Assembly: GCA_050118655.1 (NCBI GenBank) | Contig: JASFKL010000001.1 | Location: 186-64,185 of the forward strand | Length of the DNA stretch: 64,000 nucleotides | Reading direction: 5' to 3' | Source of the DNA: Gammaproteobacteria bacterium | Lineage (GTDB): Bacteria; Pseudomonadota; Gammaproteobacteria; GCA-001735895 | Shown: positions 5,703-58,279 of the stretch, one piece after another | Numbering within the stretch: the first letter of the stretch is position 1 | Layout: every line of letters begins with the position of its first letter | The notes under the pieces: model-generated | The model's input: the letters and a program-made list of their open reading frames with translations, nothing else | The model's database searches: none | Told to the model about the DNA's origin: nothing | Position numbers and translations under genes: made by a program

Positions 5703-7307
5703 TCAGCCGGCGTAGCCCGGGATTAGCGATTCGTCTATTTCGTCGATCTGCTCCGGATCGAGAAACTCCTCGGCGTAGTCGAGGTAAACCCGCTCGCGAA
5801 TGAAGATCTCGAAGATATCGGGATCGATGTGATTGTCCTTTTTCATGAATCCCATGATGCGCAGGCACTCGGACAGTTTCTTGCCATGCTTGTATGGCCG
5901 ATCGCTGGCGGTCAGGGCCTCGAAAATATCGGCCACCGCCATAATCCGGGCCTGTACCGACATTTCCTCCCTTTTGAGCCCGCGCGGGTATCCCGTGCCA
6001 TCCATTTTTTCATGATGTCCGCCGGCATACTCGGGTACGTTTTGCAAATTGCGGGGAAACGGCAGCGATTCCAGCATCTTGATGGTCGCGACGATATGGT
6101 TGTTGATGACTTCCCGCTCTTCATCGTTCAGCGTGCCGCGCTTGATACACAGGTTCATGACCTCGTCGTCGGTCAAAAGCGGCCGCGTCTCGCCGGACCC
6201 GTCCACCCATTCGAGCCCGGCGAGTTGCTTTACCCGGTCGATATCCTCGTCGCTCATGAATTCGCCGCCGACATTGGCCTTGCGCAAAAATTCGAAATCC
6301 TGCCGGTATTGCTCGCGACGGGATTCGAGATCCCTGTCCAGTTGTTCGACATCGGCCTTCGATCCGTTTGCCGCTAGACGTTTTTTCAAGTATTCGATTT
6401 CGGCGTCGCGCTGCAGGATCACGAAACGGGTTTCCAGCGCATTGATACGATCGTAAATCGTTTCCAGCTTGGTGGCCTTGTCCATCACGTACTCGGGGGT
6501 AACCACCTTGCCGCAATCGTGCAACCAGGCAGCGGTCTCGAGTTCGTAGCGATCCTTGTCGGTAATTCTGAAATCCTTCAGCGGCCCCTTGTCGTCCTGG
6601 TGCGCGGCCTCGGCAAGCATCATCGTCAATACCGGAATCCGCCGGCAATGACCGCCGGTATAGGGCGACTTGTCGTCGATCGCCGAGGCGATCATGCGGA
6701 TAAAAGATTCGAACAGGATTTGCAGTTCCGAGATCAGTCTCCGCTGGGTCAGCGCGACGGCTGCCTGGGAAGCCAGTGACTCGGCGAGTTGCTGTTCGAC
6801 GGCGCTGAAAACTTTGACCTCGCCGGTTTGCTCGTTCCTGGCATTGATCAATTGCAGCACGCCGATGATTTCCTTCTCGTGGTCCTTGAGCGGAAAGGTC
6901 AGCATGGAGCGGGTGCGGTAACCGGTCTTTTCGTCGAAGGCCCGCGTGCCCGAGAAATCGAAGCCGTCCTCGTTATAGGCGTCGGCAATGTTGATGGTTT
7001 CTCCGGACAGTACGCAGTGGGAGACGACGTTGGCATGGTTATCCTTGCCTTCGATCGACAGCGGTATCGCCGGAAAAGTGATTTCGTTACCCGAGGTACC
7101 GCCCATCTGTATATCGAGCGAATCGTTGGAAATGATCTCGAATCTGAGTTCGCCGTCGTTCAGAAAATACAGCGAGCCGCCATCCGCGTGGGTGAGCGAT
7201 TTTGCTCCCATCATGATCAGCTCGAGCAGCTTGGGCGTATCGTTTTCCGCCGACAGCGCGATGCCGATTTCATTTAACCGATCAATCCTGTCGAGCAATT
7301 CTGACAT
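5703..7307 (-). CDS. GAF-domain / HD-GYP-domain phosphodiesterase (probable c-di-GMP-specific)
   Basis: N-terminal GAF-like fold; HD motif AAWLHDCGKVVTPEY and GYP motif GGHHEKMDGTGYPRGL. Confidence 0.85.
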   Translation of the reverse strand: MSELLDRIDRLNEIGIALSAENDTPKLLELIMMGAKSLTHADGGSLYFLNDGELRFEIISNDSLDIQMGGTSGNEITFPAIPLSIEGKDNHANVVSHCVLSGETINIADAYNEDGFDFSGTRAFDEKTGYRTRSMLTFPLKDHEKEIIGVLQLINARNEQTGEVKVFSAVEQQLAESLASQAAVALTQRRLISELQILFESFIRMIASAIDDKSPYTGGHCRRIPVLTMMLAEAAHQDDKGPLKDFRITDKDRYELETAAWLHDCGKVVTPEYVMDKATKLETIYDRINALETRFVILQRDAEIEYLKKRLAANGSKADVEQLDRDLESRREQYRQDFEFLRKANVGGEFMSDEDIDRVKQLAGLEWVDGSGETRPLLTDDEVMNLCIKRGTLNDEEREVINNHIVATIKMLESLPFPRNLQNVPEYAGGHHEKMDGTGYPRGLKREEMSVQARIMAVADIFEALTASDRPYKHGKKLSECLRIMGFMKKDNHIDPDIFEIFIRERVYLDYAEEFLDPEQIDEIDESLIPGYAG

Positions 7308-10265: not shown

Positions 10266-10279
10266 GCCCAGACTGTTTG

Positions 10280-11104
10280 ATGAATTTGCAAAACAAGATA
10301 ACCATCCAGGGCCTGACTGACACGGGGATAGTGCGCGGCAAGAACGAGGACGCGATCGGTTATGACAGCGCGCTGGGTCTCGTGGTTCTCGCCGATGGCA
10401 TGGGAGGTCATCGCGGCGGCGAAATAGCCAGCAGTATGACCGTCGATACGGTTATCAATCTCCTGCAGCAGCGGCTGCCGGAAATCAACTCCGGCGACGT
10501 CGACGAAGCCAGTGGATTTTCGATGGAGTCGATTTGTATCCAGGATGCCGTGGTCGCGGCCAACGAACTGGTCTACAAGACCGCCGAGGCCAATCCCGAA
10601 CACAAGGGAATGGGCACCACGATCGTGGTATTGCAGTTCTACAACAATTCCTTCTCCCTCGCCCATATCGGCGACTCGCGCTGTTATCGTCTGCGCAATG
10701 ACAAGCTCGAACAGATTACCAAGGATCACTCCCTGTTACAGGAACTCATCGACCGCGGCTTCTATACGCCCGAAGAAGCGCGCAATTCGATGAACAAGAA
10801 TCTCGTGACGCGTGCCCTGGGCATCGATCCGATCGTCATGCCGGACATACAGGAGGATATAGTCCTGAAAAATGACATATATTTGCTATGTTCAGATGGG
10901 TTAACGGATTTAGTCGAAGACGAAGATATATACTTAACTATTAAGCAATTTAGTGCTAATCTAGAAGAAGCTGCCAAGCAATTGATTACAAAGGCAAACC
11001 AGAATGGCGGAAAGGATAATATTTCGGTAATGCTGTGCCGGATTGACGATGATTTTTCGTCCCGGCAAGGCTGGTTCAACAAGATTGTCGGCTGGTTCGA
11101 CTAA
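10280..11104 (+). CDS. PP2C-family Ser/Thr protein phosphatase
   Basis: GLTDTGIVRGKNEDA...VLADGMGGHRGGEIAS...LLCSDGLTD; the track ORF starts at TTG 10262, but the ATG at 10280 is preferred; immediately downstream of the kinase stop (10265), within 4 nt of it in the TTG model. Confidence 0.85.
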   Translation: MNLQNKITIQGLTDTGIVRGKNEDAIGYDSALGLVVLADGMGGHRGGEIASSMTVDTVINLLQQRLPEINSGDVDEASGFSMESICIQDAVVAANELVYKTAEANPEHKGMGTTIVVLQFYNNSFSLAHIGDSRCYRLRNDKLEQITKDHSLLQELIDRGFYTPEEARNSMNKNLVTRALGIDPIVMPDIQEDIVLKNDIYLLCSDGLTDLVEDEDIYLTIKQFSANLEEAAKQLITKANQNGGKDNISVMLCRIDDDFSSRQGWFNKIVGWFD

Positions 11105-11150
11105 CGGATTACACACCCAGTACAAACTACTCTACAGGCTGGATAATAAA

Positions 11151-11873
11151 ATGGTCGCAAAACTGATCACTACTTCAAGCACGGGCGAAAAAACCGAGTA
11201 TGAACTGGTCAATGAAACCACCACGATTGGGCGTAAGCCGGGTAACGATATTCAAATCGATAATCTGTCAGTCAGCGGCAGGCATGCGCAGGTAATCACC
11301 ATCCTCGAAGATTCATTTCTGGAAGATCTCGGCAGCACCAACGGCACTTACGTCAACGGCAAACTGGTAAAAAAACACGCGCTCGAAGACGGCGACAGTA
11401 TCACCCTGGGCAAGTATCAAATCACCTACCAGAATAACTCCGGCGGCGGTGAACAGGATTTCGAACAAACCATGATTATCCGCCCCGGCGAAGCGGGCAT
11501 GCCCGAAGAAGCCGGCAGCAAGGAAATCGACAAGTCGGTGCAAAAAATTTCAGCGGCGATCGCCTCGGAGGCAGCCAGCACAGCCTCGTCGCCGATGTCT
11601 AACAAGGAAGCCTGCCTGCAATTGCTCAGCGGCGCCAACGCCGGCAAGGAGCTGGTATTGACCAAGGCCCTGACCACCATCGGCCAGCCGGGTGTGCAGG
11701 TGGCGGCGATCACCCGCCGTCCGCAAGGCTTTTTCCTGATTCACGTCGATGGCGGCCCGAACAACAATGTCCCGAAAGTCGGCGGCTCGGAGATCGGCTC
11801 GAACGCGCACGAACTCAAGAGCCACGACATTATCGAAGTAGCCGGCGTAAAAATGGAGTTCTACCTCAAATAA
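11151..11873 (+). CDS. FHA-domain protein (phospho-Thr reader); second half is FHA-like
   Basis: TTIGRKPGNDIQIDNLSVSGRHAQV...STNGTYVNGKLV is an FHA core; start chosen at MVAKL (11151), after the PP2C stop at 11104. Confidence 0.75.
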   Translation: MVAKLITTSSTGEKTEYELVNETTTIGRKPGNDIQIDNLSVSGRHAQVITILEDSFLEDLGSTNGTYVNGKLVKKHALEDGDSITLGKYQITYQNNSGGGEQDFEQTMIIRPGEAGMPEEAGSKEIDKSVQKISAAIASEAASTASSPMSNKEACLQLLSGANAGKELVLTKALTTIGQPGVQVAAITRRPQGFFLIHVDGGPNNNVPKVGGSEIGSNAHELKSHDIIEVAGVKMEFYLK

Positions 11874-11913
11874 AGCCGTTCCTGCTCGTCCGCATTGAAA
11901 CCGGGGGCAAACA

Positions 11914-14145
11914 ATGCAATTACAGCGCATAGTCAGGCTGGTGCTTAGCGCACTGATCCTGCTGGTCATCCTGCTCGACACCTCCGGAGTTTACAAGTAT
12001 CCATTCATCAAGCAGCTGGAAAACTGGACTTACGACGCGCGGCTGAACTTTACCCGTCCCGATACCGTCGACGATCGCGTGGTTATCGTCGATATCGACG
12101 AAACCTCGCTCGCCGAGGTCGGCCGCTGGCCCTGGGGTCGCGACCAGCTCGCGCGCATCGTCGACAACCTGTTCGACTTTTACGGGGCCGACGTGGTCGC
12201 CTTCGATATCGTATTCGCCGAAAAAGACGAGAGCTCCGGACTGGAACAGTTCGAGCAGCTGGCGCGAACCACGTTGCGCGGCGACGAGGAATATATCGAG
12301 GCGCTCGATAAGATCCGGCCGAGCCTCAAACACGACGAAATTTTCGCGCAGAGCCTGGTCGGTAAAAACGTCGTTCTCGGCTATTACTTCAAGTCCAGGT
12401 TGCAGGAAGGAGAAAGCGGTGTCACCGGCCTCCTGCCCCCCGCATTGACCAGGATGGACAGGCAGTGGAGCGAACGCCTGCCGATCAACAAGGCGGTAGG
12501 CTACGGCGGCAACCTGGAAATACTGCAAACCTCGGCACGCTCCGGCGGCTACTTCGACAACCCCTTCGTCGATGCCGACGGCGTATTTCGCCGCGTGCCG
12601 CTGGTGCAGTCCTACCAGGGCTACCTGTTCGCCTCGCTGGCTCTCGCCACTACCCAGGCGTATCTCGACGCCGACGGTATCGAGCTGGCGATCGAAACCG
12701 AGGGAACGCGCGGCGAGAACGAATATTTCGCGCTGGAGACGATTAACCTGAAGAATCACAAGATTCCCGTGGACGCCAACGGCGCGGTGTTCGTGCCCTA
12801 CCGCGGCAGGCAGGGAAGCTTTCCCTATATCCCCGCCCACGAAGTGCTGAGCCGCAAGACCAACCCGCTGGCGCTAAAGAACAAGATCGTACTGATCGGC
12901 ACCTCGGCACCGGGCCTGCTCGACCTGCGCTCTACTCCAGTACAAAACATTTATCCCGGGGTCGAGGTCCATGCCAATATCATTTCCGGCATCCTCGACG
13001 ATCGTATCAAGCACAAGCCGGCCTGGACGGTGGGTTACGAACTCGTGTTACTGATAGTCATCGCGGTCAGCATGGCCTTGCTGTTGCCGCTGGTTTCGCC
13101 GCTGCTGGCGGCGACCGGGACGCTCGGGATTACCGGCCTGGTGGTCGCCGGAACCTTCGTCGCCTGGAACAACAACCTGATCCTGCCGCTGGCGAGCCCG
13201 CTGCTGCTGATTCTGTTGCTGTTCATGCTGCACATGTCCTACGGATTCTTCATCGAGTCCCGTGGCAAGCGGCAGCTCGCTAACCTGTTCGGGCACTACA
13301 TACCGCCCGAACTGGTCGACGAGATGAGCGAATCGCCCGAGGAATATTCGCTCGAGGGCGAGAACCGTGAAATGACCGTGCTGTTTTCGGACGTGCGCGG
13401 ATTCACGTCGATCTCGGAAGGCATGGACCCGAAACAGTTGACCCAGCTCATGAACGCGCTGTTGACGCCGATGACGCGCGTCATCCACAAGAACCGGGGT
13501 ACGATAGACAAGTACATGGGAGATGCCATCATGGCCTTCTGGGGCGCGCCGCTGGCCAATGCCGAGCATGCCCGGCACGCGCTCTATGCCGCACTCCAGA
13601 TGATGGAAGAACTGAAGATAATGCAGGAAGACTTCAAGCAACGCGGCTGGCCGACGGTCAACATCGGTATCGGCTTGAACACCGGCGACATGAACGTCGG
13701 CAACATGGGATCGGAATTCCGCATGGCTTATACCGTGCTCGGCGACGCGGTCAACCTGGGTTCGAGGCTCGAGGGCCTGACCAAGGAATACGGCGTCAAC
13801 ATCATCGTCAGCGAATCCACCAAGGCGGCGATACCCGAATTCGTATTCCGAGAACTCGACCTGGTCAGGGTGAAAGGCAAGAACGAACCGGTCGCAATTT
13901 TCGAACCGGTCGGGCACAAAAACGATCTCGACAAGTCGGTCACCTCGGAGATCAGCGAATACCGCAAGGCATTGATGAACTTTCGCTCCCAGTCCTGGGA
14001 CAAGGCCGAGCTCGATTTCTTCAACCTCAACCGCATCAACCCGGACCGGCAGCTATACCAGGTCTACCTCGAACGTATCGCGGTCTACCGCAGGGAGCCG
14101 CCCGGAGAGGGCTGGGACGGCGTTTTTACGCACACCACGAAGTAA
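11914..14145 (+). CDS. CHASE2 sensor domain - transmembrane - class III nucleotidyl cyclase (probable adenylate cyclase)
   Basis: CHASE2 signature VVIVDIDETSLAEVGRWPWGRDQLARIV; TM segments around residues 365-440; cyclase core MTVLFSDVRGFTSISE...TIDKYMGDAIMAFWGAP...YTVLGDAVNLGSRLE with Lys in KxxGD. Confidence 0.85.
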   Translation: MQLQRIVRLVLSALILLVILLDTSGVYKYPFIKQLENWTYDARLNFTRPDTVDDRVVIVDIDETSLAEVGRWPWGRDQLARIVDNLFDFYGADVVAFDIVFAEKDESSGLEQFEQLARTTLRGDEEYIEALDKIRPSLKHDEIFAQSLVGKNVVLGYYFKSRLQEGESGVTGLLPPALTRMDRQWSERLPINKAVGYGGNLEILQTSARSGGYFDNPFVDADGVFRRVPLVQSYQGYLFASLALATTQAYLDADGIELAIETEGTRGENEYFALETINLKNHKIPVDANGAVFVPYRGRQGSFPYIPAHEVLSRKTNPLALKNKIVLIGTSAPGLLDLRSTPVQNIYPGVEVHANIISGILDDRIKHKPAWTVGYELVLLIVIAVSMALLLPLVSPLLAATGTLGITGLVVAGTFVAWNNNLILPLASPLLLILLLFMLHMSYGFFIESRGKRQLANLFGHYIPPELVDEMSESPEEYSLEGENREMTVLFSDVRGFTSISEGMDPKQLTQLMNALLTPMTRVIHKNRGTIDKYMGDAIMAFWGAPLANAEHARHALYAALQMMEELKIMQEDFKQRGWPTVNIGIGLNTGDMNVGNMGSEFRMAYTVLGDAVNLGSRLEGLTKEYGVNIIVSESTKAAIPEFVFRELDLVRVKGKNEPVAIFEPVGHKNDLDKSVTSEISEYRKALMNFRSQSWDKAELDFFNLNRINPDRQLYQVYLERIAVYRREPPGEGWDGVFTHTTK

Positions 14146-45814: not shown

Positions 45815-47218
45815 TCAAAAATTGCGTACATCGACGAAATGGCCCTCTACCGCGGCCGCGGCGGCCATCGCCGGCGATACCAGGTGAGTGCGCCCGCCCT
45901 GCCCTTGCCGGCCCTCGAAGTTGCGGTTCGAAGTCGAGGCGCAACGCTCTCCCGGCTCGAGCCGGTCGGCGTTCATACCCAGGCACATCGAGCAACCGGG
46001 TTCGCGCCATTCGAATCCGGCATCGATGAAAATCCGGTCCAGACCCTCGGACTCGGCCTGTTCCTTGACCAGCCCGGACCCCGGCACTACCAGCGCGAGC
46101 TTGATATTGTCCGCGATCTTGCGCCCCTTGACGACGCCGGCGGCGGCGCGCAGGTCTTCGATCCGCGAATTGGTGCAGGAACCGATGAATATCTTGTCCA
46201 GCCGGACCTGCTCAAGCGGCGTGTTGGGCTCGAGGCCCATGTAAGCGAGCGCGTTGCGGATACTCCCGGCCCGGGTGGGATCGGTTTCGGCGGCGGGATC
46301 GGGTACCTTGCCGCCGATACCACAAACCATTTCCGGGGAGGTTCCCCAGGTCACCTGCGGTGAAATATCGGCAGCGTCGATCTCGACTTCGCGGTCGAAC
46401 CGCGCATCGTCGTCCGAATGCAGATCGCTCCAGAATTCGACTGCACGGTCCCAGGTCTCTCCGCGGGGCGCGAACGGACGGCCCTTGATGTAATCGAGCG
46501 TGGTCTGATCGCAGGCAATCAGACCTGCACGGGCGCCGGCTTCTATGGTCATGTTGCAGACCGTCATGCGGCCTTCCATCGACAGATCGGTAATTGCATC
46601 GCCGGCGAATTCGATCGTGCAACCGGTGCCGCCGGCGGTGCCGATGACACCGATGATATGCAGCACGATATCCTTCGCGGTAATTCCCTCGGCTACCGAC
46701 CCCCTGACGCGCACGCGCATGTTTTTCGACTTTTTCTGAATCAGGCACTGGGTAGCCATGACATGCTCGACCTCGGAAGTGCCGATGCCGAAAGCCAGCG
46801 CCGCGAAAGCCCCGTGCGTCGAGGTGTGCGAATCCCCGCATACCACGGTCATGCCCGGCAGGGTCGCGCCCTGTTCCGGACCGATGACGTGCACGATGCC
46901 CTGGCGCACGTCGCCCATCTTGAATTCGGTGAGCGCATGCTTGTCGCAATTGGCGTTCAGCGTATCCACCTGCAGACGCGCGACCGGGTCGGTAATACCG
47001 TATTCGAGACCCGTGGTCGGTACGTTGTGATCGGGAACCGCGAGAATCGAGCGCTTGCGCCACAGCGGACGATGCGCGATTTCGAGTCCCTCGAAGGCCT
47101 GCGGCGAGGTAACCTCGTGAACCAGGTGACGGTCGATATACAGCAACGCGGTGCCGTCTTCGTCGAGGCGCACCTGGTGCAAATCCCAGATCTTGTCGTA
47201 CAGGGTCTTTCCGGACAT
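45815..47218 (-). CDS. leuC: 3-isopropylmalate dehydratase large subunit
   Basis: [14 protein letters not shown]...[20 protein letters not shown]; aconitase-family Cys ligands; start at the second Met (47218). Confidence 0.92.
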
Positions 47219-47314
47219 GTCGATTACCCGCAATAAAACTTGAGCGATTTTACGCCTGCATTTAAAATAACTCTAATTCATTATTTTCATAAATTTGATT
47301 CTATTTAGGAATAC

Positions 47315-48232
47315 ATGCAGCTCAACCAGATCCGCGCTTTTCTCGCTGTCGCCGAACTCGAGTCGTTTTCGCTCGCCGCCGAGCGCCTGCACGTCACCCA
47401 GCCCGCGGTCAGCAAGCGTGTCCGCCAACTCGAAAACAACCTGCGGGTGGAGCTGTTCGACCGTATCGGCAAGCGCAGCATCCTGACGCCCAACGGCCTC
47501 GCCTTCAAACCCCGCGCCGAGCGCATCCTCGAAGAATTGCAATCCTACCGCCAGGATCTCGCCCGGCAGCTGGGAACGCCCTCGGGCAGTCTGAGTTTCG
47601 CGACCAGCCACCACGTCGGGCTGCACCGCCTGCCGCAGGTGTTGCGCGAATTCAAGATCCGCTACCCGCAGGTCGACCTCGACCTGCAGTTCATGGATTC
47701 GGAGGATGCCTGCAGCGCGATCGCCGCCAACCAGCTGGAGCTGGCGATCGTCACCCTGCCCGAGGTCGTCGACGACAGGCTGATTTGCGAAACCGTCTGG
47801 ATAGACGAACTGGTCGCGGTCACCGCACCCGATCACGAACTCGCCGCGAGCGACGTGATCGATGCCGAAGAATTACTGCGCTACCCCGCCATCCTGCCGT
47901 CGCACGAAACCTTCACTCGCCGAATCATCGACAACCTGTTTGCCGACAACGACCGTCGGCTCGATATCATTCTCGAAACCAATTACCTGGAAACCATCAA
48001 GGTCATGGTGTCTGCCAACCTGGGATGGAGCATACTGCCGCGCAGCATGATCGACGCGAGCCTCATCGGGCATCGACTCGCCGGGCTCGACGCGCACCGT
48101 CGGCTGGGCATGGTGACGCGCAGGCATCGCAGCCTGTCCCCGGGTTCGAGCGCGATGCAGGAATTTTTGCGCGAGCTTGCCGCGACCCCGTCGCCGGCGG
48201 CCAATACGGCCGCCGGCCGGTCTACTGCATAA
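47315..48232 (+). CDS. LysR-family transcriptional regulator, divergent from leuC
   Basis: N-terminal wHTH LNQIRAFLAVAELESFSLAAERLHVTQPAVSKRV; LysR substrate-binding domain. Confidence 0.85.
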   Translation: MQLNQIRAFLAVAELESFSLAAERLHVTQPAVSKRVRQLENNLRVELFDRIGKRSILTPNGLAFKPRAERILEELQSYRQDLARQLGTPSGSLSFATSHHVGLHRLPQVLREFKIRYPQVDLDLQFMDSEDACSAIAANQLELAIVTLPEVVDDRLICETVWIDELVAVTAPDHELAASDVIDAEELLRYPAILPSHETFTRRIIDNLFADNDRRLDIILETNYLETIKVMVSANLGWSILPRSMIDASLIGHRLAGLDAHRRLGMVTRRHRSLSPGSSAMQEFLRELAATPSPAANTAAGRSTA

Positions 48233-48281
48233 CCCCTGGTTTGTTGCTATAGTCAGGACGTCACCATTCAAGGAGACTTCA

Positions 48282-48665
48282 ATGCGTCCTTTAATGAAAG
48301 TATCGATTCTTGTCGCTGCCATACTGCTCAGCGGCAACAGTTTCGCGGGTGAAGTCAGCCGGGCCATGTTCACCATCGGCATCGACAATCGCGAGCCCGT
48401 CATCATGGTCGACAGCATCGACAGCAGCGCCTACAACTCGATTTCTTTTTTCACCGAGTTGAAAGATCTCGAAGGTCATAACGTCACCCATCAATGGAAA
48501 TTCGACGGCAAGGTGATGTTCGAAAAAACCTTCGAGGTCAAGGGCGCCCGCTGGCGCGTGTGGACCAGCAAGACGCTGCTGCCTTCCTGGACCGGCGAGT
48601 GGACCGTCAACGTGCTCGATACCGATCGCACGGTACTCGCCAGCAAGACTTTCGAGTACCTGTAA
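48282..48665 (+). CDS. Secreted DUF2914-like protein
   Basis: Signal peptide MRPLMKVSILVAAILLSGNSFAG; RBS AAGGAGA 6 nt upstream; HQWKF...ARWRVWTSK...GEWTVNV pattern resembles DUF2914. Confidence 0.55.
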   Translation: MRPLMKVSILVAAILLSGNSFAGEVSRAMFTIGIDNREPVIMVDSIDSSAYNSISFFTELKDLEGHNVTHQWKFDGKVMFEKTFEVKGARWRVWTSKTLLPSWTGEWTVNVLDTDRTVLASKTFEYL

Positions 48666-48671
48666 ACTGTT

Positions 48672-48685
48672 CACGGCATGCCGTG
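48672..48685 (+). terminator. Short palindromic hairpin CACGGCATGCCGTG just after the DUF2914 stop (weak intrinsic-terminator candidate)
   Basis: Perfect 14-bp palindrome 7 nt after the stop; the downstream tract is only moderately U-rich. Confidence 0.25.
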
Positions 48686-48702
48686 CTTCATTCCCTGCCG
48701 GA

Positions 48703-49236
48703 GTGGAGAACGGCCCGCCGTTTCTGCCGTTTGCCGCGCTGACGACGATGTACTGGCCGAAGAAAATTTTCATCGCGTTGACCGCGATCGTCCTGCTGCA
48801 GTCGGTCTTCTACTACCCGAAGATGCCGGCGGTGGTCGCCTCGCATTTCGATGCGCAGGGCGCGGCCAACGGCTGGTCCGGCAAGGAAGTTTTCTTCGGG
48901 CTTTACCTGGCTATCGTCCTGTTGCTGTTCGGGGTCTTCGGCTGGGTACCGAAGTGGATCGAATCACGCCCCGGCAAAAGCGTTAACATTCCCAATCGCG
49001 ATTACTGGCTGGCCCCGGAACGCAGGGCCGAAACCTGGGCCTTCTTCCGCCGCCAGATGATGCTGATGGGTGACCTGCATCTGTTGCTGGCGATTTTCGC
49101 CTTCCAGCTGGCGATCCTCGCCAACTTCGATCGGCCTCCTCGATTGCATCCGGCGATCGGCTGGGCGCTGGCTTTTTACTTCATCGTTTTCACCGCCTGG
49201 CTGATCCACTTTTTCCTGCATTTCAAAAGGCCGTGA
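48703..49236 (+). CDS. DUF1648/SdpI-like integral membrane protein
   Basis: Four predicted TM helices; [14 protein letters not shown] motif; GTG start (ATG alternative at 48748); stop overlaps the start of the next gene (GTGA). Confidence 0.55.
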
Positions 49237-50264
49237 AGAGCCGCAAGATCATTCACGTGGTTTCCTGTCACGCCGAGGGCGAGGTCGGCGACGTTATCGT
49301 CGGCGGCGTCGCCCCGCCTCCCGGCGATAGCCTCTGGGAACAGTCGAGGTGGATCGACCGCGACGGCCGGCTGCGAAATTTCATGCTCAACGAACCCCGC
49401 GGCGGCGTGTTCAGGCATGTCAACCTGTTGCTGCCCGCGAGGCATCCCGACGCCGACTTCGGCTTCATCATCATGGAGCCCGAGCACACCCCGCCGATGT
49501 CCGGCTCCAACGCGATCTGCGTGGCGACCGTGCTGCTGGACAGCGGGCTGATCGAGATGCAGGAACCGGTCACCGAGTTTACGCTCGAAGCACCGGGCGG
49601 ACTGGTGCCGGTGAAGGCATTTTGCGAATACGGCAAGGCGCAGAGCATCGAGGTTGAAAACGTCGCGTGCTTCGCCGGGCGGCTCGATGCGCCGCTGGAA
49701 GTCGAAGGCGTCGGCACGCTCCGCGTCGACACCGCTTATGGCGGTGACAGTTTCGTCATCGTCGACGCCGCCGGCCTGGGCTTCGAGATTCGTCCCGAGG
49801 AGGCCGCCGAACTGGCGCGGACAGGCGGGCGCATCACGCGCGCGGCCAACGAACAGCTGGGCTTCGAACACCCGGAAAATCCGGACTGGTCGCATATCTC
49901 TTTTTGCCAGTTCGCATCGCCGATCGAGCAGGACGACGGCGTCCTGGTCAGCCGCAATGCCGTGGTCATCGACCCGGGCAAGCTGGACCGCTCTCCGACC
50001 GGCACCGGCTGCTCCGCGCGGATGGCGGTATTGCATGCCAGGGGCATGATGGGCACGGGCGACCGGCTGGTCGGCAAATCGATCCTCGGTTCGCGATTCG
50101 ATTGTCGTATCGTCGGCGAAACCCGGGTCGGCAGCAGGCCGGCGATCCTGCCCGCGATCCGCGGTCGCGCATGGATCACGGGCACCCATCAGTTATTGCT
50201 GGACCCCGACGATCCCTGGCCGGAGGGATACCGGCTCAGCGATACCTGGCCGCTGAAAACCTGA
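49233..50264 (+). CDS. Proline racemase / 4-hydroxyproline epimerase superfamily protein with a non-canonical Ser/Thr catalytic pair (possible hydroxyproline dehydratase or epimerase-like)
   Basis: [21 protein letters not shown]-terminus; MSGSNAIC aligns to the family MCGHN motif; [14 protein letters not shown] aligns to DRSPCGTG. Confidence 0.8.
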
Positions 50265-50392
50265 TGACCGCCGGGTATCGAAGCGGGACGCCGCGGATCG
50301 CCTTGATCCCGGTCAAATTGTATCCGCGGGTCATGCCGATATAATTGCGCATTCTCGAAACCGGAATACCGGATTCATTATCGTGCCCTGAA

Positions 50393-51820
50393 ATGCCCGA
50401 ATCGCCAATGGAAAAAAACGTCAGCAGCCGCAACACCCACGATAAGGCGCTGCGCATCAATCTCGACGAAAAGAAATACGGCACCATCGTCGAGATCGGC
50501 GCCGGCCAGGAAGTCGCGCGCCAGTTTTTCAAGGCCGGGGCGGCCGCGGGAACCATCGCCAAGACCATGTCGGCATACGACATGCAGTTTTCCGATGCGA
50601 TTTACGGGGTCCAGGAAGACCGCCGCTACGTCAGCCACAGCCGGGTGGAGGCGATGCTGAAAAAGGAATTCCAGCTGGTCATCGACCGGGTCAGCAAAAT
50701 TCGCTCGGCCTCGTCGCGCTATTTTTCCTATGCCGCCACGGTGGCCGCCAAGAGTTTCAAGGGCAACAACGAGTGCCATGCCTGGTGCGGTATCCGGGTG
50801 CAGATGTATCCGGGCGCGGAGCCGTCCGACATCGTCATCCACGTACGCATGCGCGACGGCGACGCGGATCGCCAGCAGCAGGCGCTGGGTGTGTTCGGTG
50901 TCAACGTGATTTACGCGGCCTATTACTACTTCGAAAACCCGCAAACCCTGATCGATTCGCTGACCGATAACCTCGAGCAGGGGCGCATCGAAATCGACTC
51001 GATCGAATTTCAGGGCCCCTACTTCGAAGAAGTCGACAATCGCGCCATCAACCTGCACCTGATCCGCAGCTGGAAAACCCGCGCCATCATGTTCCGGCCC
51101 GACGGTTCGGTCGCCGTTCCGGCCGAAATGCTTCACAAGAAAAACGTGCTCACGATTCGCGGTACCTTCAAACCGGTAACCCGCCTCAACGTGGACATGA
51201 TCGAGCAGGGCCTGAAGGCTTTCACGGGCATGGACGGCGTGACCGTGGAAAACAGCGTCGCACTGGCCGAAATATCGCTCAACGACATGCAGGGTAACGA
51301 TCTCGGGGTATCCGGAGAAGACTTGATCGAGCGCGTCAGCCTGCTGAACAAGCTCGGCTACAGCGTGATGGTTTCGGATTACACGCGGTACTTTTCGCTG
51401 CGCGCCTATTTCCGCCAGTTCACCAAGCTGCAGATCGGCATCGTCCTCGGGATCATGAACATCCGGCAGATTTTCGACGAGAACAGCTACCGCGGGGTCG
51501 AAGGCGGTATCCTCGAAGGTTTCGGCAAGCTGTTCCCCGATAATACGCGGCTGCTGGTTTACCCCGAAATCGACAACGCCGGGGAATATGTGGACTATCA
51601 AAGCGTCGTTTTACCGACGAATCTGCAATACCTGTATCGCCACCTGCTGGAGAACCATTTCATCTTCGGCATCGAAGCCAGCGACCGCGAACTGTTCAAG
51701 ATTCATTCGCGCGAGGTGCTCAAGCAATTGCCGGACGGCAGGGGCGACTGGGAAGCCTGTCTGCCCGAGGGTATAGCCGAGGAAATCATCGAGCGAAGGC
51801 TGTTCGGCTACCGGGACTGA
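50393..51820 (+). CDS. Conserved hypothetical protein (~470 aa), no family recognised
   Basis: Long uninterrupted ORF with coding-like composition; start ambiguous (TTG 50345, ATG 50393 or 50408); I could assign no diagnostic motif. Confidence 0.55.
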   Translation: MPESPMEKNVSSRNTHDKALRINLDEKKYGTIVEIGAGQEVARQFFKAGAAAGTIAKTMSAYDMQFSDAIYGVQEDRRYVSHSRVEAMLKKEFQLVIDRVSKIRSASSRYFSYAATVAAKSFKGNNECHAWCGIRVQMYPGAEPSDIVIHVRMRDGDADRQQQALGVFGVNVIYAAYYYFENPQTLIDSLTDNLEQGRIEIDSIEFQGPYFEEVDNRAINLHLIRSWKTRAIMFRPDGSVAVPAEMLHKKNVLTIRGTFKPVTRLNVDMIEQGLKAFTGMDGVTVENSVALAEISLNDMQGNDLGVSGEDLIERVSLLNKLGYSVMVSDYTRYFSLRAYFRQFTKLQIGIVLGIMNIRQIFDENSYRGVEGGILEGFGKLFPDNTRLLVYPEIDNAGEYVDYQSVVLPTNLQYLYRHLLENHFIFGIEASDRELFKIHSREVLKQLPDGRGDWEACLPEGIAEEIIERRLFGYRD

Positions 51821-51847
51821 AACGCCCGCGCACGGATTTGCCGGGGT

Positions 51848-53062
51848 TCAGGCGATAATCCCCGCAGCGCGGAGTTTTTCGAGATCTCCGGCGTCCAGCT
51901 CGAGCAATCGCGAGAGAACCTCGTCGGTGTGCTGGCCGAGCAACGGCGGGGCCTGCCGATAGTCGATCGGCGTACGCGACAGCCGGATCGGGTTGGCGAC
52001 GCTGGCGACGCTGCCGGCCGACGGGTGATCGAGCTGCAGCTGCAGACCGCGTGCCTTGACCTGCGGATCGTCGAAAACCTGATCGATTTCATTGATCGGT
52101 CCGCAGGGAATCCCCTCGGAGTTGAGTGCCTCCAGCCACGCGGCGGCGGATTTTTCACGCATGATTTCGGCGACCCGGGGAACCAGCAGGTCGCGATGCT
52201 CGACGCGCGCGCGATTGCTGCGAAAACGGGGGTCCTCCGCGAGTTCGGAGCGACCGGCGAGAGCGCAGAAGCGCGCGAACTGGGAATCGTTACCGACCGC
52301 CAGGATGATATAGCCGTCGCTGGTCTGAAACGCCTGGTAAGGGACGATATTGGGATGCGCATTGCCGAGCCGGCGCGGGTTTTCGCCGCTGGCGAGATAA
52401 TTCATCGCCTGGTTGGCGAGCGCGGCCACCTGCACGTCGAGCAGGGCCATATCGATATATTGTCCCTCGCCCGTCGCGCGCTGGTGAAGCAATGCCGCCT
52501 GGATCGCGTTGGCCGCGTACAGGCCGGTCAGGATGTCGGCCAGCGCCACGCCGATCTTCATCGGCTGACCGTCGGCCTCGCCGGTGACGCTCATCAATCC
52601 GCCCATCGCCTGGATCATGAAATCGTAGCCGGCGCGCGCCGCGTAAGGGCCGTCCTGGCCGAAACCGGTGATCGAGCAATACACCAGGGAAGGATTGATT
52701 TCTTGCAGGCTGTCGTAGTCGAGGCCGTATTTTTCCAGACCGCCGACCTTGAAGTTTTCGATCAATACGTCGGCGAGACGGGCGAGCTCGCGGATCAACT
52801 CCTGCCCGCCGGGTTGCGACATGTCGATGCATACCGACTGCTTGCCGCGGTTGGCGCTGTGAAAATAGGCCGATTCTGAACCCGGTTTGCCGTCGCGATC
52901 CGGCATGTAGGGCGGACCCCAGCCGCGCGTATCGTCGCCGCTGCCGGGACGCTCGACCTTGATCACCTCGGCGCCGAGATCGGCGAGCATCTGGCTGGCC
53001 CAGGGCCCGGCGAGGATGCGGCTCAGATCCAGTACCCGCACGCCGGCGAGTGGTCCAGACAT
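51848..53062 (-). CDS. Family III CoA-transferase (CaiB/BaiF; glutarate/succinate-type)
   Basis: GVRVLDLSRILAGPWASQMLADLGAEVIKVE...; start codon adjoins the gcdH stop. Confidence 0.85.
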   Translation of the reverse strand: MSGPLAGVRVLDLSRILAGPWASQMLADLGAEVIKVERPGSGDDTRGWGPPYMPDRDGKPGSESAYFHSANRGKQSVCIDMSQPGGQELIRELARLADVLIENFKVGGLEKYGLDYDSLQEINPSLVYCSITGFGQDGPYAARAGYDFMIQAMGGLMSVTGEADGQPMKIGVALADILTGLYAANAIQAALLHQRATGEGQYIDMALLDVQVAALANQAMNYLASGENPRRLGNAHPNIVPYQAFQTSDGYIILAVGNDSQFARFCALAGRSELAEDPRFRSNRARVEHRDLLVPRVAEIMREKSAAAWLEALNSEGIPCGPINEIDQVFDDPQVKARGLQLQLDHPSAGSVASVANPIRLSRTPIDYRQAPPLLGQHTDEVLSRLLELDAGDLEKLRAAGIIA

Positions 53063-54247
53063 CTAGAAGAATGCCTGGATGCCGGTTTGCGCCCTGCCCA
53101 GGATCAGGGCGTGGATATCGTGGGTACCCTCGTAGGTATTGACCGCCTCGAGGTTCATCGCGTGGCGGATGACGTGATACTCGTCGGCGACCCCGTTACC
53201 GCCGTGCATGTCGCGTGCGACGCGGGCGATGTCGAGCGCCTTGCCGCAGTTATTGCGTTTCATCATCGACACCAGCTCCACCGGGCAGTTGCCGGCATCC
53301 ATCAGGCGCCCCATTTGCAGGCAACCCTGCAACCCCAGGGTGATCTCGGTCTGCATGTCGGCGAGCTTCTTTTGCACCAGCTGGGTCGCCGCCAGCGGCC
53401 GGCCGAACTGGTTGCGGTCGAGCGTGTACTGGCGCGCGGCGTGCCAGCAGAATTCGGCCGCGCCCATGCTACCCCAGGCGATACCGAAACGCGCCCGCGT
53501 CAGGCAGCCGAAAGGCCCCTTCAGGCCCTCGACGTTCGGCAACAGGTTTTCCTCCGGCACGAAAACGTCCTGCATCGCGATTTCACCGGTTACCGAGGCG
53601 CGCAGCGAAAACTTGCCTTCGATCCCGGGTGTCGTCAATCCGTCCATGCCGCGCTCGAGGATAAAACCGCGAATCACGTCGTCGAGCTTGGCCCAGACAA
53701 CGAAAACGTCGGCGATCGGCGAATTGGTGATCCACATTTTGGCTCCCTTGAGCCGATATCCGCCGTCGACCGCGGTGGCCGTGGTTTTCATGCTCGCGGG
53801 ATCCGATCCGGCATCGGGTTCGGTGAGCCCGAAACATCCCACCAGCTCGCCGCTGGCGAGCCCGGGCAGATACTTGCCGCGCTGTTCGTCGCTACCGTAG
53901 GCATAAATCGGATACATGACCAGCGACGACTGCACGCTCATCGCCGAGCGGTAACCGCTGTCGACGCGCTCGACCTCGCGCGCGATCAACCCATAGGACA
54001 CGTAGTTGACGCCGGCACAGCCGTATTCCTCGGGAAGCGTCGCTCCCAGCAATCCCAGCTGGCCGAATTCGTTCATGATTTCGCGATCGAACACCTCGTC
54101 GCGATTGGCCCTGCGGATGCGCGGCATCAATTGCTGCTGGCAGTAGTCGCGGGCCGCATCGCGGATCAGGCGCTCCTCGTCGGCGAGCTGCTGCTCGAAA
54201 AACATCGGATCCTGCCAGTCGAAAGTTACGCGTTTTGCTTGGGTCAT
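53063..54247 (-). CDS. gcdH: Glutaryl-CoA dehydrogenase
   Basis: Acyl-CoA dehydrogenase fold with GcdH-type N-terminus [13 protein letters not shown]..., [13 protein letters not shown]; paired with a CoA-transferase as in Pseudomonas. Confidence 0.87.
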
Positions 54248-54306: not shown

Positions 54307-55638
54307 TCAATTTCCGCTCCCCGCGTTCGAACTCGCGGCACCGGGCCCGCGCCGATCGGCGATTTGCAACGCCAGGGTTCCGTAGTTGTAATAAGCGGCG
54401 CGAAGCTTGCGCCAGTGCTCGCGATGGACCGCCTCCACGGGAAACGGAAAATCGCGCAAATCGTCCCTGACCAGGGCCTCGGCCAGGTGTTTGCCGATCA
54501 CCGTGCCCGGACCGATACCGCGCCCGTTGTAACCCGCCGGCGCATAGATTCCCGGGGCGATCAGCTGCACGCGCAGAATCTTGCTGTCGGTAACCCCGAC
54601 CTGCCCGCTCCAGCGATACACCCAGCGCAGGCCCCGGGTTTGCGGAAACAGGCGGTTGCGATTGCGCGTCATCCAGTTTTCGCGCGGCGCGCGCTGGTAT
54701 CCGGCCAGTCTCCCCGCACTACTCATGATCAGCCTTCCGGCCGAATCGACCCGCGACGACGTCATCAGGCTCTGCGTATCCCAGAGACCCTGTCGCTGCG
54801 GGATGATGCGCGCGGCGAGCTCGGGCGACAGCGGTTCGCTGGCGCACTGGAAGATGAACACCGGCAGGGTCGACGCACGCACCTGCGCGTTATTTCGATC
54901 GGCATAGGCATTGGTCGCGAGGATGACCCGCGACGCGGAAACTTCGCCGGCGGCGGTGCTTGCCAGCCAGCGATCCTGCCTGCGCTCGAGACTCGATATA
55001 GCGGAGTCCTGGAAGATCCGCGCCCCCGCACCGAGCGCGGCCGCGGCCAGCGAGCGAGCGTAATTGAGCGGATGAATGGTGCCGGCACCGGGATCGAGGA
55101 TACCCCCATAGCGATAGCAGGGCGACGCCGATATCCTCGACGCGGCCGGGCCGTCGATCAGTTCGACCGCGGCGCCCAGCGCCTGCAGTTGGCTACAGCG
55201 ATCCTCGAGCGTCTTCATCGCCGCGGCACTGTGCGCGATATGTACCGTGCCGGCGCGCCGCGCTTCGCAGTTCATCGAAAACCGTTCGATCAGCTCGAAG
55301 ACCAGCGCCGGCGAGTCCCTTAGCGCCCGGTAGAATCGCTCGCCCTTGTCCGCGCCGAGTTGCCGGGCCACGTGACGCGGATCTTTCCACACTCCCGCGT
55401 TAACCAGGCCGGCGTTGCGCCCCGACCCGCCGAAGCCGATCGACCTGGCCTCCAGCAAGACCACGTCGACACCCTGCTCGGCGAGGTGCAGGGCGCTCGA
55501 CAGGCCCGTATACCCGCCGCCGACGACGAGCACGTCCGCGCGCAGCGATTCCCGCAGGCGATCGTCGACCGGGTTGTCGATTGCAGTTGCTCCCCAGAGC
55601 GAGTTTTCTCCGGGATCCTGCGGTAAAAAGTCTGCCAT
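54307..55638 (-). CDS. FAD-dependent oxidoreductase (DadA/PuuB-like amine oxidase family)
   Basis: Rossmann motif VLVVGGGYTGLSSALHLAEQG; start set at MADFLPQ (55638). Confidence 0.8.
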   Translation of the reverse strand: MADFLPQDPGENSLWGATAIDNPVDDRLRESLRADVLVVGGGYTGLSSALHLAEQGVDVVLLEARSIGFGGSGRNAGLVNAGVWKDPRHVARQLGADKGERFYRALRDSPALVFELIERFSMNCEARRAGTVHIAHSAAAMKTLEDRCSQLQALGAAVELIDGPAASRISASPCYRYGGILDPGAGTIHPLNYARSLAAAALGAGARIFQDSAISSLERRQDRWLASTAAGEVSASRVILATNAYADRNNAQVRASTLPVFIFQCASEPLSPELAARIIPQRQGLWDTQSLMTSSRVDSAGRLIMSSAGRLAGYQRAPRENWMTRNRNRLFPQTRGLRWVYRWSGQVGVTDSKILRVQLIAPGIYAPAGYNGRGIGPGTVIGKHLAEALVRDDLRDFPFPVEAVHREHWRKLRAAYYNYGTLALQIADRRGPGAASSNAGSGN

Positions 55639-55808: not shown

Positions 55809-57245
55809 ATGAGCGTCGACGAGTTGTGTTATCTGACCGCCGCGCAGGCGATCGGCAAATTTACCGACGGCAGCCTGTCGCCGGTCGACCTGATGCAGGC
55901 GATAGCCAGCCGCACCGATGCCGTCGAGCCGTCGGTCAATGCCTTCACCGAAACCTGGTTCGAAGACGCGCTGGAAAAGGCGCGCGAGGCCGAGGCGCGT
56001 TACCGCAACGGAACCCAGCGCCCGCTCGAAGGCATTCCGCTCGCGGTCAAGGATGAATTCAAGCTCGCGGGCCGGCGGCGTACTTCGGGTTCGCTGGTTT
56101 ACCGCGATCGGGTCGACGACGAAAGCGACGTCATTATTCAACGATTGCTCGACGCCGGCGCGATCGCGCATGCGAAAACCGTGACACCCGAATTCTGCCT
56201 GCTGGGCTCCTGCCATTCGCGCCTCTGGGGGGTGACCCGAAACCCGTGGAACCTCGATATCACCAGCGGCGGTTCGTCCGGGGGTTCGGGAGTCTCGCTC
56301 GCCGCCGGCACCACGATCATCGCCACCGGCACCGATATCGGCGGATCGATTCGCATCCCGTCGGCACTCTGCGGAACCGTCGGTTACAAACCGCCTTACG
56401 GCAGGAACCCGGAAATCCCCGTATTCAACCTCGATTTCTACAGCCATTCGGGACCGATGACACGCAGTGTCGGCGATGCCGCGATGATGCAGAATATCGT
56501 CTCGGGCGTGCACAACCGCGATATCGCCAGTCTGCGCGAAAAACTGGTGCTCGACGCCTCGATCCCGGCCGATCTCTCGGGCTGGAAAATCGGCTATTCG
56601 CTCGATCTCGGCTTCATGGAAGTCGATGCCTCGGTGCGCGACAATACCCTCGCCGCGCTGGATATCCTGCGCGGACTCGGCGCGCAGGTCGACGAGGTCG
56701 AACTCGGCTGGGACGAAGCGATCATCCAGGCGGCGCACAGCTACTGGGCGCACGGCTGGGCCGCGCCGATGGAACGCCTGCTCGACGAACATCGCGATCA
56801 ACTCTGCGACTACACGGTCTGGTTCGTCGAAAACTCCCGCCGCTCGACGCCGCGCGACTACCTCGAATCGATCGAGACCGCGGTAGGTATGTACGACCGC
56901 TTCGGTCCGCTGATGGATGAGCTCGACCTGTTCGTCTGCCCGACCCTGATGACCACCGGGATACCGAACGACAGTACCTGGCCCGATAACGAGGTCGAAA
57001 TCAACGGCCGGATTCACCGGCTCAGCGAAGAGCACTGGTCGGCGACTTATCCGTTCAATATGCTGAGCCGTTGCCCGGTGATTTCGATGCCCAGCGGCCT
57101 GGCCGCCAACGGGGTGCCCACCGCGGTACAATTCGTCGCCCGGACTTACGACGATCAGCGGGTTTTCAGTGCCGCGCTGGCTTACGAGCAGGCCTTCGAG
57201 CGCCCCCTTTACCAACTCGATAAACGCATTTCAGCCGGAGAATAG
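55809..57245 (+). CDS. Amidase-signature family amidase
   Basis: GGSSGGSGVSLAAG Gly/Ser-rich amidase signature; Ser-cisSer-Lys context; RBS GGAG. Confidence 0.85.
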   Translation: MSVDELCYLTAAQAIGKFTDGSLSPVDLMQAIASRTDAVEPSVNAFTETWFEDALEKAREAEARYRNGTQRPLEGIPLAVKDEFKLAGRRRTSGSLVYRDRVDDESDVIIQRLLDAGAIAHAKTVTPEFCLLGSCHSRLWGVTRNPWNLDITSGGSSGGSGVSLAAGTTIIATGTDIGGSIRIPSALCGTVGYKPPYGRNPEIPVFNLDFYSHSGPMTRSVGDAAMMQNIVSGVHNRDIASLREKLVLDASIPADLSGWKIGYSLDLGFMEVDASVRDNTLAALDILRGLGAQVDEVELGWDEAIIQAAHSYWAHGWAAPMERLLDEHRDQLCDYTVWFVENSRRSTPRDYLESIETAVGMYDRFGPLMDELDLFVCPTLMTTGIPNDSTWPDNEVEINGRIHRLSEEHWSATYPFNMLSRCPVISMPSGLAANGVPTAVQFVARTYDDQRVFSAALAYEQAFERPLYQLDKRISAGE

Positions 57246-57247
57246 CG

Positions 57248-58279
57248 ATGCTTACGGTGTTTAGCGAAAAACACGCCCTGCGCGACGCCAAAACCGAACT
57301 CTACGGCGGCAAACTGGTGCCCCCGTTCGAATGCCCGGTGCGCGCCGAGCACGTACTCGATCGCGTGCGCGAGGTCGGGCTCGGCGAAATCCTTGCGCCG
57401 CGGGAATTCGGCATCGAGGCCGTGACTCGCGTGCACGATGCCGACTTCGTGCGTTTCCTCGAGACTTGCTGGAAGGAATGGACCGCGCTGGGTTACGACG
57501 GCGAGGCGATCGCCAACTGCTGGCCGGCGCGCGGCATGCATCTGGATCGGGTACCGCGGCATATCGAGGGTAAGCTCGGACATTATGCGATGGCCGCGGA
57601 AACCTCGATATCCAGCGGCACCTGGGAAGCGGCGCGCGCCAGCGTCGACGTCGCTTTGACCGCGCAGGCGGCGATACGGGACGGCGCCAGGGAAGCCTTT
57701 GCCCTGTGCCGGCCGCCGGGTCACCACGCGGCGGAGGATATGTTCGGCGGTTACTGCTTCATCAACAATGCCGCGGTTGCCTCGCAGGCATTCCTCGACC
57801 AGGGGGCCTCGAGGATCGCATTGCTCGACGTCGACTTTCACCACGGCAACGGCAGCCAGGCGATTTTTTATCAGCGCGACGACGTCATGTTCCTGTCGCT
57901 GCACGGCCACCCCGAAGATGCTTTCCCGCACTTCCTCGGTTACGCGGACGAAACCGGCGCCGGCGCCGGTGAGGGTTATAATCATAATTACCCGATGGGT
58001 CCGGGTACCAATTTCAGGACCTGGGGCAGCGCGCTCGACGACGCTTGCAAAAAAATCGCCGCCTATGCGCCCGATGCATTGCTGGTCTCGCTCGGTGTCG
58101 ACACTTTCGAGCACGACCCGATATCCTTTTTCAAGCTGACCAGCGACGACTTCAAGCGCTACGGAGCAACCCTCGGCCGGCTCGGTCTGCCGACACTGTT
58201 TTTGATGGAAGGCGGTTACGCGGTCGAGGAAATCGGCGTCAACGCGGTCAACGTGCTCGAAGGCTACGAGGGCCGGTGA
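57248..58279 (+). CDS. Histone-deacetylase-family amidohydrolase (acetylpolyamine amidohydrolase / AcuC-like)
   Basis: CRPPGHHA, DVDFHHGNG and EGGY motifs typical of the arginase/deacetylase fold. Confidence 0.85.
   Translation: MLTVFSEKHALRDAKTELYGGKLVPPFECPVRAEHVLDRVREVGLGEILAPREFGIEAVTRVHDADFVRFLETCWKEWTALGYDGEAIANCWPARGMHLDRVPRHIEGKLGHYAMAAETSISSGTWEAARASVDVALTAQAAIRDGAREAFALCRPPGHHAAEDMFGGYCFINNAAVASQAFLDQGASRIALLDVDFHHGNGSQAIFYQRDDVMFLSLHGHPEDAFPHFLGYADETGAGAGEGYNHNYPMGPGTNFRTWGSALDDACKKIAAYAPDALLVSLGVDTFEHDPISFFKLTSDDFKRYGATLGRLGLPTLFLMEGGYAVEEIGVNAVNVLEGYEGR

Follow-up and report, generated by a model that had tools for sequence, protein, structure and literature searches.

[quoted passage not shown]

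The window, by which we mean the whole 64-kb stretch of DNA that was analyzed (64,000 nucleotides), is part of an ordinary gammaproteobacterial chromosome with a GC content of 60%, carrying rnt, tig-clpP-clpX-lon-ppiD, cysS, ppiB, purF-cvpA-folC, truA, fimV, asd and leuB-leuD-leuC. After leuC, a run of genes on the forward strand encodes a LysR-family regulator, a DUF2914 protein, a DUF1648 protein, a protein of the proline racemase superfamily (PRS) and a conserved protein of 470 amino acids. The genes that follow, for a CoA-transferase and an acyl-CoA dehydrogenase, are convergent with this run and thus form a separate transcription unit; also on the reverse strand is a gene for an AmaA-like FAD oxidase (409 bits, cut-off 600), after which come an amidase and a deacetylase-family gene on the forward strand. 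Pfam thereby bears out the LysR regulator and the glutaryl-CoA pathway genes that the initial annotation of this DNA had listed as neighbors of the PRS gene. The features considered here are the following:

47315..48232, forward strand: LysR-family regulator (Pfam HTH_1 and LysR_substrate), at the head of the same-strand run and divergent from leuC
48282..48665, forward strand: DUF2914 protein, 127 amino acids (Pfam PF11141, 66 bits), with a hydrophobic N-terminal stretch resembling a signal peptide
48703..49236, forward strand: DUF1648 protein, 177 amino acids (Pfam PF07853, 43 bits), small, hydrophobic and probably a membrane protein
49233..50264, forward strand: PRS gene of the Ser/Thr type, 343 amino acids (Pfam PF05544, 435 bits; NCBIfam NF047722, 615.7 bits)
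49500..49502, forward strand: codon TCC of Ser90 (PPMSGSN), at the first catalytic Cys position in alignments; proposed catalytic residue for dehydration
49509..49511, forward strand: codon AAC of Asn93, the Ser-positioning residue by analogy with 4K7G; invariant in 205 of 205 sequences
49986..49988, forward strand: codon GAC of Asp252 (DRSP), equivalent to the Asp by which the prolyl nitrogen is coordinated; the same in all 205 sequences
49998..50000, forward strand: codon ACC of Thr256 (DRSPTGTGC), at the second catalytic Cys position in alignments; non-catalytic in 4K7G
50408..51820, forward strand: conserved protein of 470 amino acids, starting 143 nt past the PRS stop, with no Pfam, NCBIfam or clear PDB match
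51848..53062, reverse strand: family III CoA-transferase (Pfam annotation of the identical contigs L001 and L002)
53063..54247, reverse strand: acyl-CoA dehydrogenase of the glutaryl-CoA type (Pfam annotation of L001 and L002)

The PRS open reading frame begins with a GTG codon, and within its first four bases, GTGA, lies the TGA stop codon of the DUF1648 frame, as the initial annotation had described and as is seen in the sequence. This start is supported by homologs, which align with the protein from residue 1, and by the public gene calls, which are identical in five public contigs and place the start where it lies in the window. The product, previously proposed as a proline-racemase-superfamily enzyme, is indeed a full-length one: the Pro_racemase profile (Pfam PF05544) matched residues 9-334 with 435 bits, spanning profile positions 1-325 of 325, which together with the two-domain fold places the protein in the superfamily (PF05544 / InterPro IPR008794). 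Its AF2 model (pLDDT 74.3) matched 38 PRS chains in Foldseek at TM scores of 0.67-0.80, with 4k7g_B as the best PDB match (E 3e-43, TM 0.80), followed by 1TM0, 4K8L, Ser/Cys epimerases, the T. litoralis and human dehydratases and T. cruzi PRAC. Among the NCBIfam models, the protein passed the equivalog NF047722 (T3LHypDht; 615.7 bits versus a cut-off of 550), which assigns the subfamily and not the dyad because it has no specificity for Ser/Thr, the Ser/Cys relatives L021, L019, L025 and L041 scoring as high (614-651 bits). The ProR and 4HypE models gave only 87-240 bits, well under their cut-offs of 376-556, and NF045511, which describes Type I (Cys/Thr) T3LHyp dehydratases, gave 207.6 bits versus a cut-off of 540.

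In a MAFFT alignment against Cys/Cys paralogs from related loci, Ser90 shared a column with the MCGH Cys and Thr256 with the DRSPCGTG Cys, from which it follows that the motifs are correctly registered and that no canonical cysteine was missed. Gap-free HMMER alignments to 4K7G_B, 1TM0 and 4K8L revealed the same Ser and Thr in these three, the closest of the solved structures, and the motifs PPMSGSN and DRSPTGTGC are common to 4K8L, 1TM0, chain B of 4K7G and the window protein. The initial annotation had read Ser in place of the Cys of MCGHN and Thr in place of the Cys of SPCGTG, naming alignment as the means by which a slip in register would come to light; its reading held against both the paralogs and the structures. 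The spacing from Asp252 to residue 256 is four residues, as it is from Asp232 to Cys236 in Q4KGU2. With Ser90 and Thr256 filling the two columns, the protein falls outside the Cys/Cys racemases and 4-hydroxyproline 2-epimerases and, its first site being Ser, outside the Type I (Cys/Thr) dehydratases as well. It carries the Type II dyad, with Ser in SGSN accompanied by Asn93 and with Thr rather than Cys at the second site of DRSP-T-GTG. The Ser/Thr pair is conserved and is no sequencing accident; Ser90, Asn93 and Asp252 were invariant in all 205 sequences of a set of close relatives, and mean column identity was 83% across 38 relatives.

The initial annotation had treated a Ser/Thr pair as uncharacterized and had guessed at a non-racemase chemistry, perhaps that of a hydroxyproline dehydratase. 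The guess agrees with the literature, but the combination itself is already known, as a published, structurally characterized (4K7G) and database-modeled class (Type II, NF047722). In the account of Zhao et al. 2014 (eLife; PMC4113996), the Ser-Thr dyad corresponds to cluster 3 of the PRS network, and 4K7G is the structure of B9K4G4, with Ser90, Thr256 and bound pyrrole-2-carboxylate. Ser90 is described there (including the legend to their Figure 5) as the residue that catalyzes dehydration and is kept in position by hydrogen bonds from Asn93, and Thr256 as mimicking the usual Cys in a non-catalytic orientation; dehydration of trans-3-hydroxy-L-proline (t3-Hyp) by B9K4G4 is reported from 1H NMR. 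Ser-Thr-type proteins were annotated as 'Type II T3LHypD' by Watanabe et al. 2015 (PMC4364671), and S/T paralogs in three Brucella species, including Q8YFD6 (1TM0), were tabulated by Goytia et al. 2007 (PMC1964878).

The window protein and B9K4G4 align over 340 residues with no internal gaps at 66.5% identity (E ~1e-156), and the two have in common the Ser90/Thr256 numbering, SGSN with Asn93, the Asp of DRSP and the TGTGC motif, B9K4G4 also being the best structural match. They differ in that dehydratase activity was measured for B9K4G4, whereas the window protein is known from sequence, and in that the source of the window gene is an uncultured gammaproteobacterium, in which it lies beside housekeeping leu and asd genes and genes for DUF2914 and DUF1648 proteins, outside any hydroxyproline catabolic cluster. 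The same Ser/Thr dyad is found at 66.7-67.6% identity in Q8YFD6 of Brucella melitensis (1TM0) and A6WW16 of Ochrobactrum anthropi (4K8L), of which the former is called 'putative t3HypD' by Zhao et al. (PMC4113996) and the latter 'putative 4HypE/t3HypD' in its PDB title. Like the window protein, the proteins of 4K7G, 1TM0 and 4K8L all exceed the NF047722 cut-off. The Type I Cys/Thr dehydratases (human L3HYPDH 7QPO, Thermococcus litoralis 6R76 and Azospirillum brasilense) have the same fold (TM 0.74-0.77), the second-site Thr and, as predicted for the window protein, the same reaction, but they are only 26-32% identical to it and their first catalytic residue is Cys rather than Ser; the ligand-binding residues of Type I and Type II are completely different, pointing to convergent evolution (Watanabe 2015, PMC4364671). 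The Cys/Cys proteins TcPRAC (1W61), PA1268 (2AZP) and Q4KGU2 (4J9W) share the two-domain fold (TM 0.67-0.77) and the DRSP.GTG motif at 28-30% identity.

On this evidence the window protein is probably a Ser/Thr-type t3-Hyp dehydratase yielding delta1-pyrroline-2-carboxylate (Pyr2C). Family membership, residue registration, conservation and close homology to a characterized enzyme are matters of observation, and from them we infer, by analogy with B9K4G4 (PDB 4K7G), the likely substrate, chemistry and physiological role in the window organism. By the same analogy, Ser90, positioned by Asn93, would abstract the C-alpha proton of t3-L-Hyp, with Asp252 binding the ring nitrogen. The conjugate acid of Ser90 would assist the departure of the 3-hydroxyl in a syn elimination, the product of which would tautomerize to Pyr2C. 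Thr256 would lie on the opposite face, where racemases have their second Cys, and no proton would be returned from there; being unable to reprotonate, it would suppress 2-epimerization. In known pathways, a reductase of the OCD or Ldh_2 family turns Pyr2C into L-proline.

A mechanism in which Thr256 prevents formation of the 2-epimer fits the behavior of a Thr-to-Cys mutant of the human dehydratase, which is reported to gain t3-Hyp epimerase activity (Visser 2012, as cited in PMC3958920), and that of the Ser/Cys protein B9JQV3, described by Zhao et al. as a 4-Hyp epimerase (PMC4113996). A natural Ser/Cys protein, PA1255 of Pseudomonas aeruginosa (LhpL, Q9I489), belongs to the same superfamily, has the same first-site Ser (S/C in Table 1 of Goytia, PMC1964878) and is bifunctional, but its second residue is Cys; with Thr at this position, the window protein would be expected to carry out dehydration alone. 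As NF047722 merges Ser/Thr and Ser/Cys proteins, it is Thr256 itself that argues for this restriction.

The main rival to the dehydratase assignment is that the window protein acts mainly or additionally as a 3-hydroxyproline or 4-hydroxyproline 2-epimerase, like some members of cluster 3, which Zhao et al. (PMC4113996) portray as diverse in function and showing some promiscuity for 4HypE and t3HypD, the cluster 3 protein D0B556 epimerizing 3-Hyp. The inability of the NCBIfam model to separate the subtypes leaves room for this reading. However, epimerization requires a proton donor on the opposite face, where the window protein has the residue described as non-catalytic in 4K7G, and both the gain of epimerase activity by the human enzyme and the bifunctionality of PA1255 go with a Cys at that site. 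We consider an epimerase unlikely, and the variation at residue 256 among relatives bears on the same point.

This variation was followed in the 205-sequence set, which comprises 120 database matches (74-100% identity), 81 genome loci (66-77%), three PDB sequences and the window protein. Residue 256 was Thr in 142 of the 205 and Cys in the other 63, with no other residue occurring. The two states were interleaved, with at least about 20 changes (at least 23 by Fitch parsimony on a neighbor-joining tree, a rough count because such topologies are uncertain at this divergence), and the nearest neighbor had the other state for 25 of 204 sequences. Close mixed pairs are real; for example, L007 has Thr and P0048 has Cys, with 95.9% identity over the rest of the sequence. 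Codons for the residue were ACN or TGY, so that two substitutions are needed per switch. The Thr and Cys versions are orthologs that occupy the same genomic slot, among them the Ser/Cys relatives L021, L170 and L172, with identities of up to 79% to the window protein, and the neighborhoods of Ser/Thr and Ser/Cys relatives showed no clear difference. Residue 256 may be a fast evolutionary switch that turns an enzyme limited to t3-Hyp dehydration into a dehydratase/2-epimerase and back. The presence of Cys256 in about 30% of close relatives could explain the heterogeneity that Zhao et al. found in cluster 3, and the current NCBIfam equivalog lumps two probable activity classes.

The surroundings of the window gene differ from those of many relatives at 66-77% identity, which lie in typical hydroxyproline clusters with genes for an ABC transporter (32 loci), DAO (15), DHDPS (14), aconitase X (AcnX; 13), Ldh_2 (8) and MR/MLE (8) and, in many cases, a second, Cys/Cys PRS gene nearby. 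Among the approximately 50 Pfam-scanned open reading frames spanning the 64-kb window (a few short ones excepted), there was no OCD, Ldh_2, DHDPS or hydroxyproline ABC transporter, so the local context gives no pathway support; a Pyr2C reductase or hydroxyproline catabolic genes within the window would have been supportive of the assignment, though not defining. The missing reductase and transporter genes would favor a different cyclic imino acid as the substrate (for example, hydroxypipecolate or another proline analog), tied to the lysine/pipecolate/glutarate neighbors or to the DUF1648 and 470-aa proteins. The nearby genes for the AmaA-like FAD oxidase (below its cut-off), glutaryl-CoA dehydrogenase and CoA-transferase point the same way, as does a DUF1648–PRS–470-aa block that recurs in several lineages and is kept in L172 despite a different downstream flank. 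Nevertheless, the glutarate genes are convergent and on the opposite strand; each of the genes for PRS, DUF1648 and the 470-aa protein has been gained or lost independently within the clade; distant homologs of the 470-aa and DUF1648 proteins do not adjoin PRS genes; and the identity to a characterized t3HypD is high, with Ser90, Asn93 and Asp252 kept. Such a substrate is thus very unlikely in our judgment.

An inactive relic or a binding protein, left without either catalytic cysteine, is an exceedingly improbable alternative: Goytia et al. 2007 saw no PRAC/HyPRE activity in the Cys-Thr and Ser-Cys proteins that they tested, but their assays covered proline and 4-Hyp only (PMC1964878), Ser/Thr and Cys/Thr proteins were later reported to be dehydratases (by Zhao et al., PMC4113996, and in PMC4364671), and the family is strongly conserved, with invariant active-site residues.

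Beyond correct annotation, the assignment as a t3-Hyp dehydratase has little importance. Through it a characterized subfamily reaches uncultured marine Gammaproteobacteria and a setting that lacks the usual hydroxyproline genes, and the residual novelty lies in the Thr/Cys alternation, in this unusual context and in the uncharacterized 470-aa family.

With regard to context, the overlap between the DUF1648 and PRS genes had been taken in the initial annotation as a sign of coupling to transport. Contigs that have public gene calls and carry both genes keep the 4-nt overlap, so the two are probably co-translated, and enzymes of the Ser/Thr and of the Ser/Cys type alike are found in the slot. 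The case for transport coupling is nonetheless weak, and the proposal found no support: of 80 metagenomic DUF1648 loci, 58 had at least 500 nt downstream, and a PRS gene was found there in only two, while each gene occurs without the other in the clade. DUF1648 is a domain of unknown function, and to our knowledge no role in transport is known for it. Recurrence of the pairing with PRS is confined to a single gammaproteobacterial clade. There, the complete set of DUF1648, PRS and 470-aa genes is found in the window, L086, L166/L167, L170/L171 and L172; DUF1648 and PRS are present in L173, where the contig ends directly after PRS, and in L089 and L008 without the 470-aa gene. In L169 the DUF1648 gene has decayed to a 51-aa open reading frame, PRS stands alone in L006, L007, L009, L010, L013, L016 and L021, and L087 has DUF1648 without PRS. 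An earlier impression from 80 GTDB representative loci, that the DUF1648 and 470-aa genes are unique to the window lineage, was overturned by the finding of the block in several metagenomic lineages.

The most constant upstream neighbor of PRS in the clade is DUF2914, present in most of the syntenic loci long enough to show it. The PRS enzyme, the DUF1648 protein with its probable translational coupling, a putatively secreted DUF2914 protein and the 470-aa protein may form an undescribed module in this marine gammaproteobacterial clade, and the substrate of the enzyme within it may then be an imino acid different from t3-Hyp; taken together, this proposal and that of a switch at residue 256 are decidedly unlikely. 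The LysR gene adjoins leuC at syntenic loci throughout the clade, an arrangement that presumably resembles the leuC-LysR order of Pseudomonas. Being conserved beside leuC clade-wide, it is weak evidence for regulation of the PRS gene, and a scan of 47100..52000 for promoters and terminators turned up no signal beyond shuffled expectation that would define an operon.

The 470-aa protein adjoins PRS only in the clade of the window. In three distant members of its family (43-57% identity) no PRS gene is adjacent, and the adjacency therefore looks like clade-level synteny. A role for it as the missing Pyr2C reductase or as a functional partner of the PRS enzyme is unsupported, given that it has no Pfam, NCBIfam or PDB match and that its distant homologs are not linked to PRS. 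The AF2 model (pLDDT 52.6) is too poor for use, and the only fused domains that Pfam revealed in longer homologs were one Hpt and one EF-hand. Close homologs are named 'TonB-dependent receptor' by NCBI, a label that looks wrong. Overall, the family comprises 3296 clusters at 50% identity (E up to 1e-3), and a profile of 60 diverse members gave weak, consistent matches to the phosphopantetheine (PPAT) and NMN (NMNAT) adenylyltransferases (best E 0.002), with these nucleotidyltransferase matches centered on an RGTF.P.T motif.

Residue 256 of the proline racemase superfamily (PRS) protein, the second catalytic Cys position, occurred in two states among 205 close relatives (window protein included), with Thr in 142, Cys in 63 and no third residue. 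On a neighbor-joining tree of these proteins, Fitch parsimony required at least 23 Thr/Cys changes, and the state differed between pairs as close as 95.9% identity. Two substitutions separate the Thr codons (ACN) from the Cys codons (TGY). The codon for Thr256 (window 49998-50000) varied among relatives that include L007, L021, L170, L172 and P0048, and a single genomic slot was found to hold both Thr256 and Cys256 versions. [quoted passage not shown] Gene content at L033, L037 and 11 further related loci suggests that cis-3-Hyp and trans-3-Hyp catabolic clusters are combined there.

Within the gammaproteobacterial clade of the window, content differed between the DUF2914 and CoA-transferase genes, with DUF1648, PRS and the 470-aa gene each there or missing in differing combinations. 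At L169, DUF1648 was reduced to a decayed 51-aa ORF, and at L013 the gap was occupied by a minus-strand ORF encoding a 271-aa membrane protein. The window carries the following features in and beyond this slot:

48282..49236, plus strand: DUF2914 and DUF1648 genes, at the variable slot (other loci: L087, L089 and L166-L173)
50408..51820, plus strand: 470-aa protein, immediately 3' of the PRS gene
51848..53062, minus strand: family III CoA-transferase
53063..54247, minus strand: glutaryl-CoA-type dehydrogenase
54307..55638, minus strand: AmaA-like FAD oxidase, scoring 409 bits against the model for L-pipecolate oxidase, short of its 600-bit cut-off
55809..57245, plus strand: amidase, following the minus-strand set
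57248..58279, plus strand: histone-deacetylase-family protein, after the amidase

The 470-aa protein had no sequence match in Pfam, NCBIfam or PDB. At 50% identity, its family (E up to 1e-3) falls into 3296 clusters. NCBI labels the close homologues, which share at least 80% identity, 'TonB-dependent receptor', a name that looks wrong. The family profile weakly matched PPAT/NMNAT nucleotidyltransferases at approximately residues 243-275 (best E, 0.002), and the AF2 model reached a pLDDT of only 52.6.

The oxidase, dehydrogenase and CoA-transferase genes probably form one operon, and the set looks like a pipecolate/lysine-to-glutarate catabolic unit.

Elsewhere in the window, a signalling gene cluster occupies 7635..14145 (plus strand), with two further genes nearby:

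4618..5673: cNMP-binding/rhodanese protein, near the cluster
5703..7307, minus strand: GAF-HD protein, near the cluster
7635..10265, plus strand: CHASE2 Ser/Thr protein kinase
10262..11104, plus strand: PP2C phosphatase
11914..14145, plus strand: CHASE2 adenylate/guanylate cyclase
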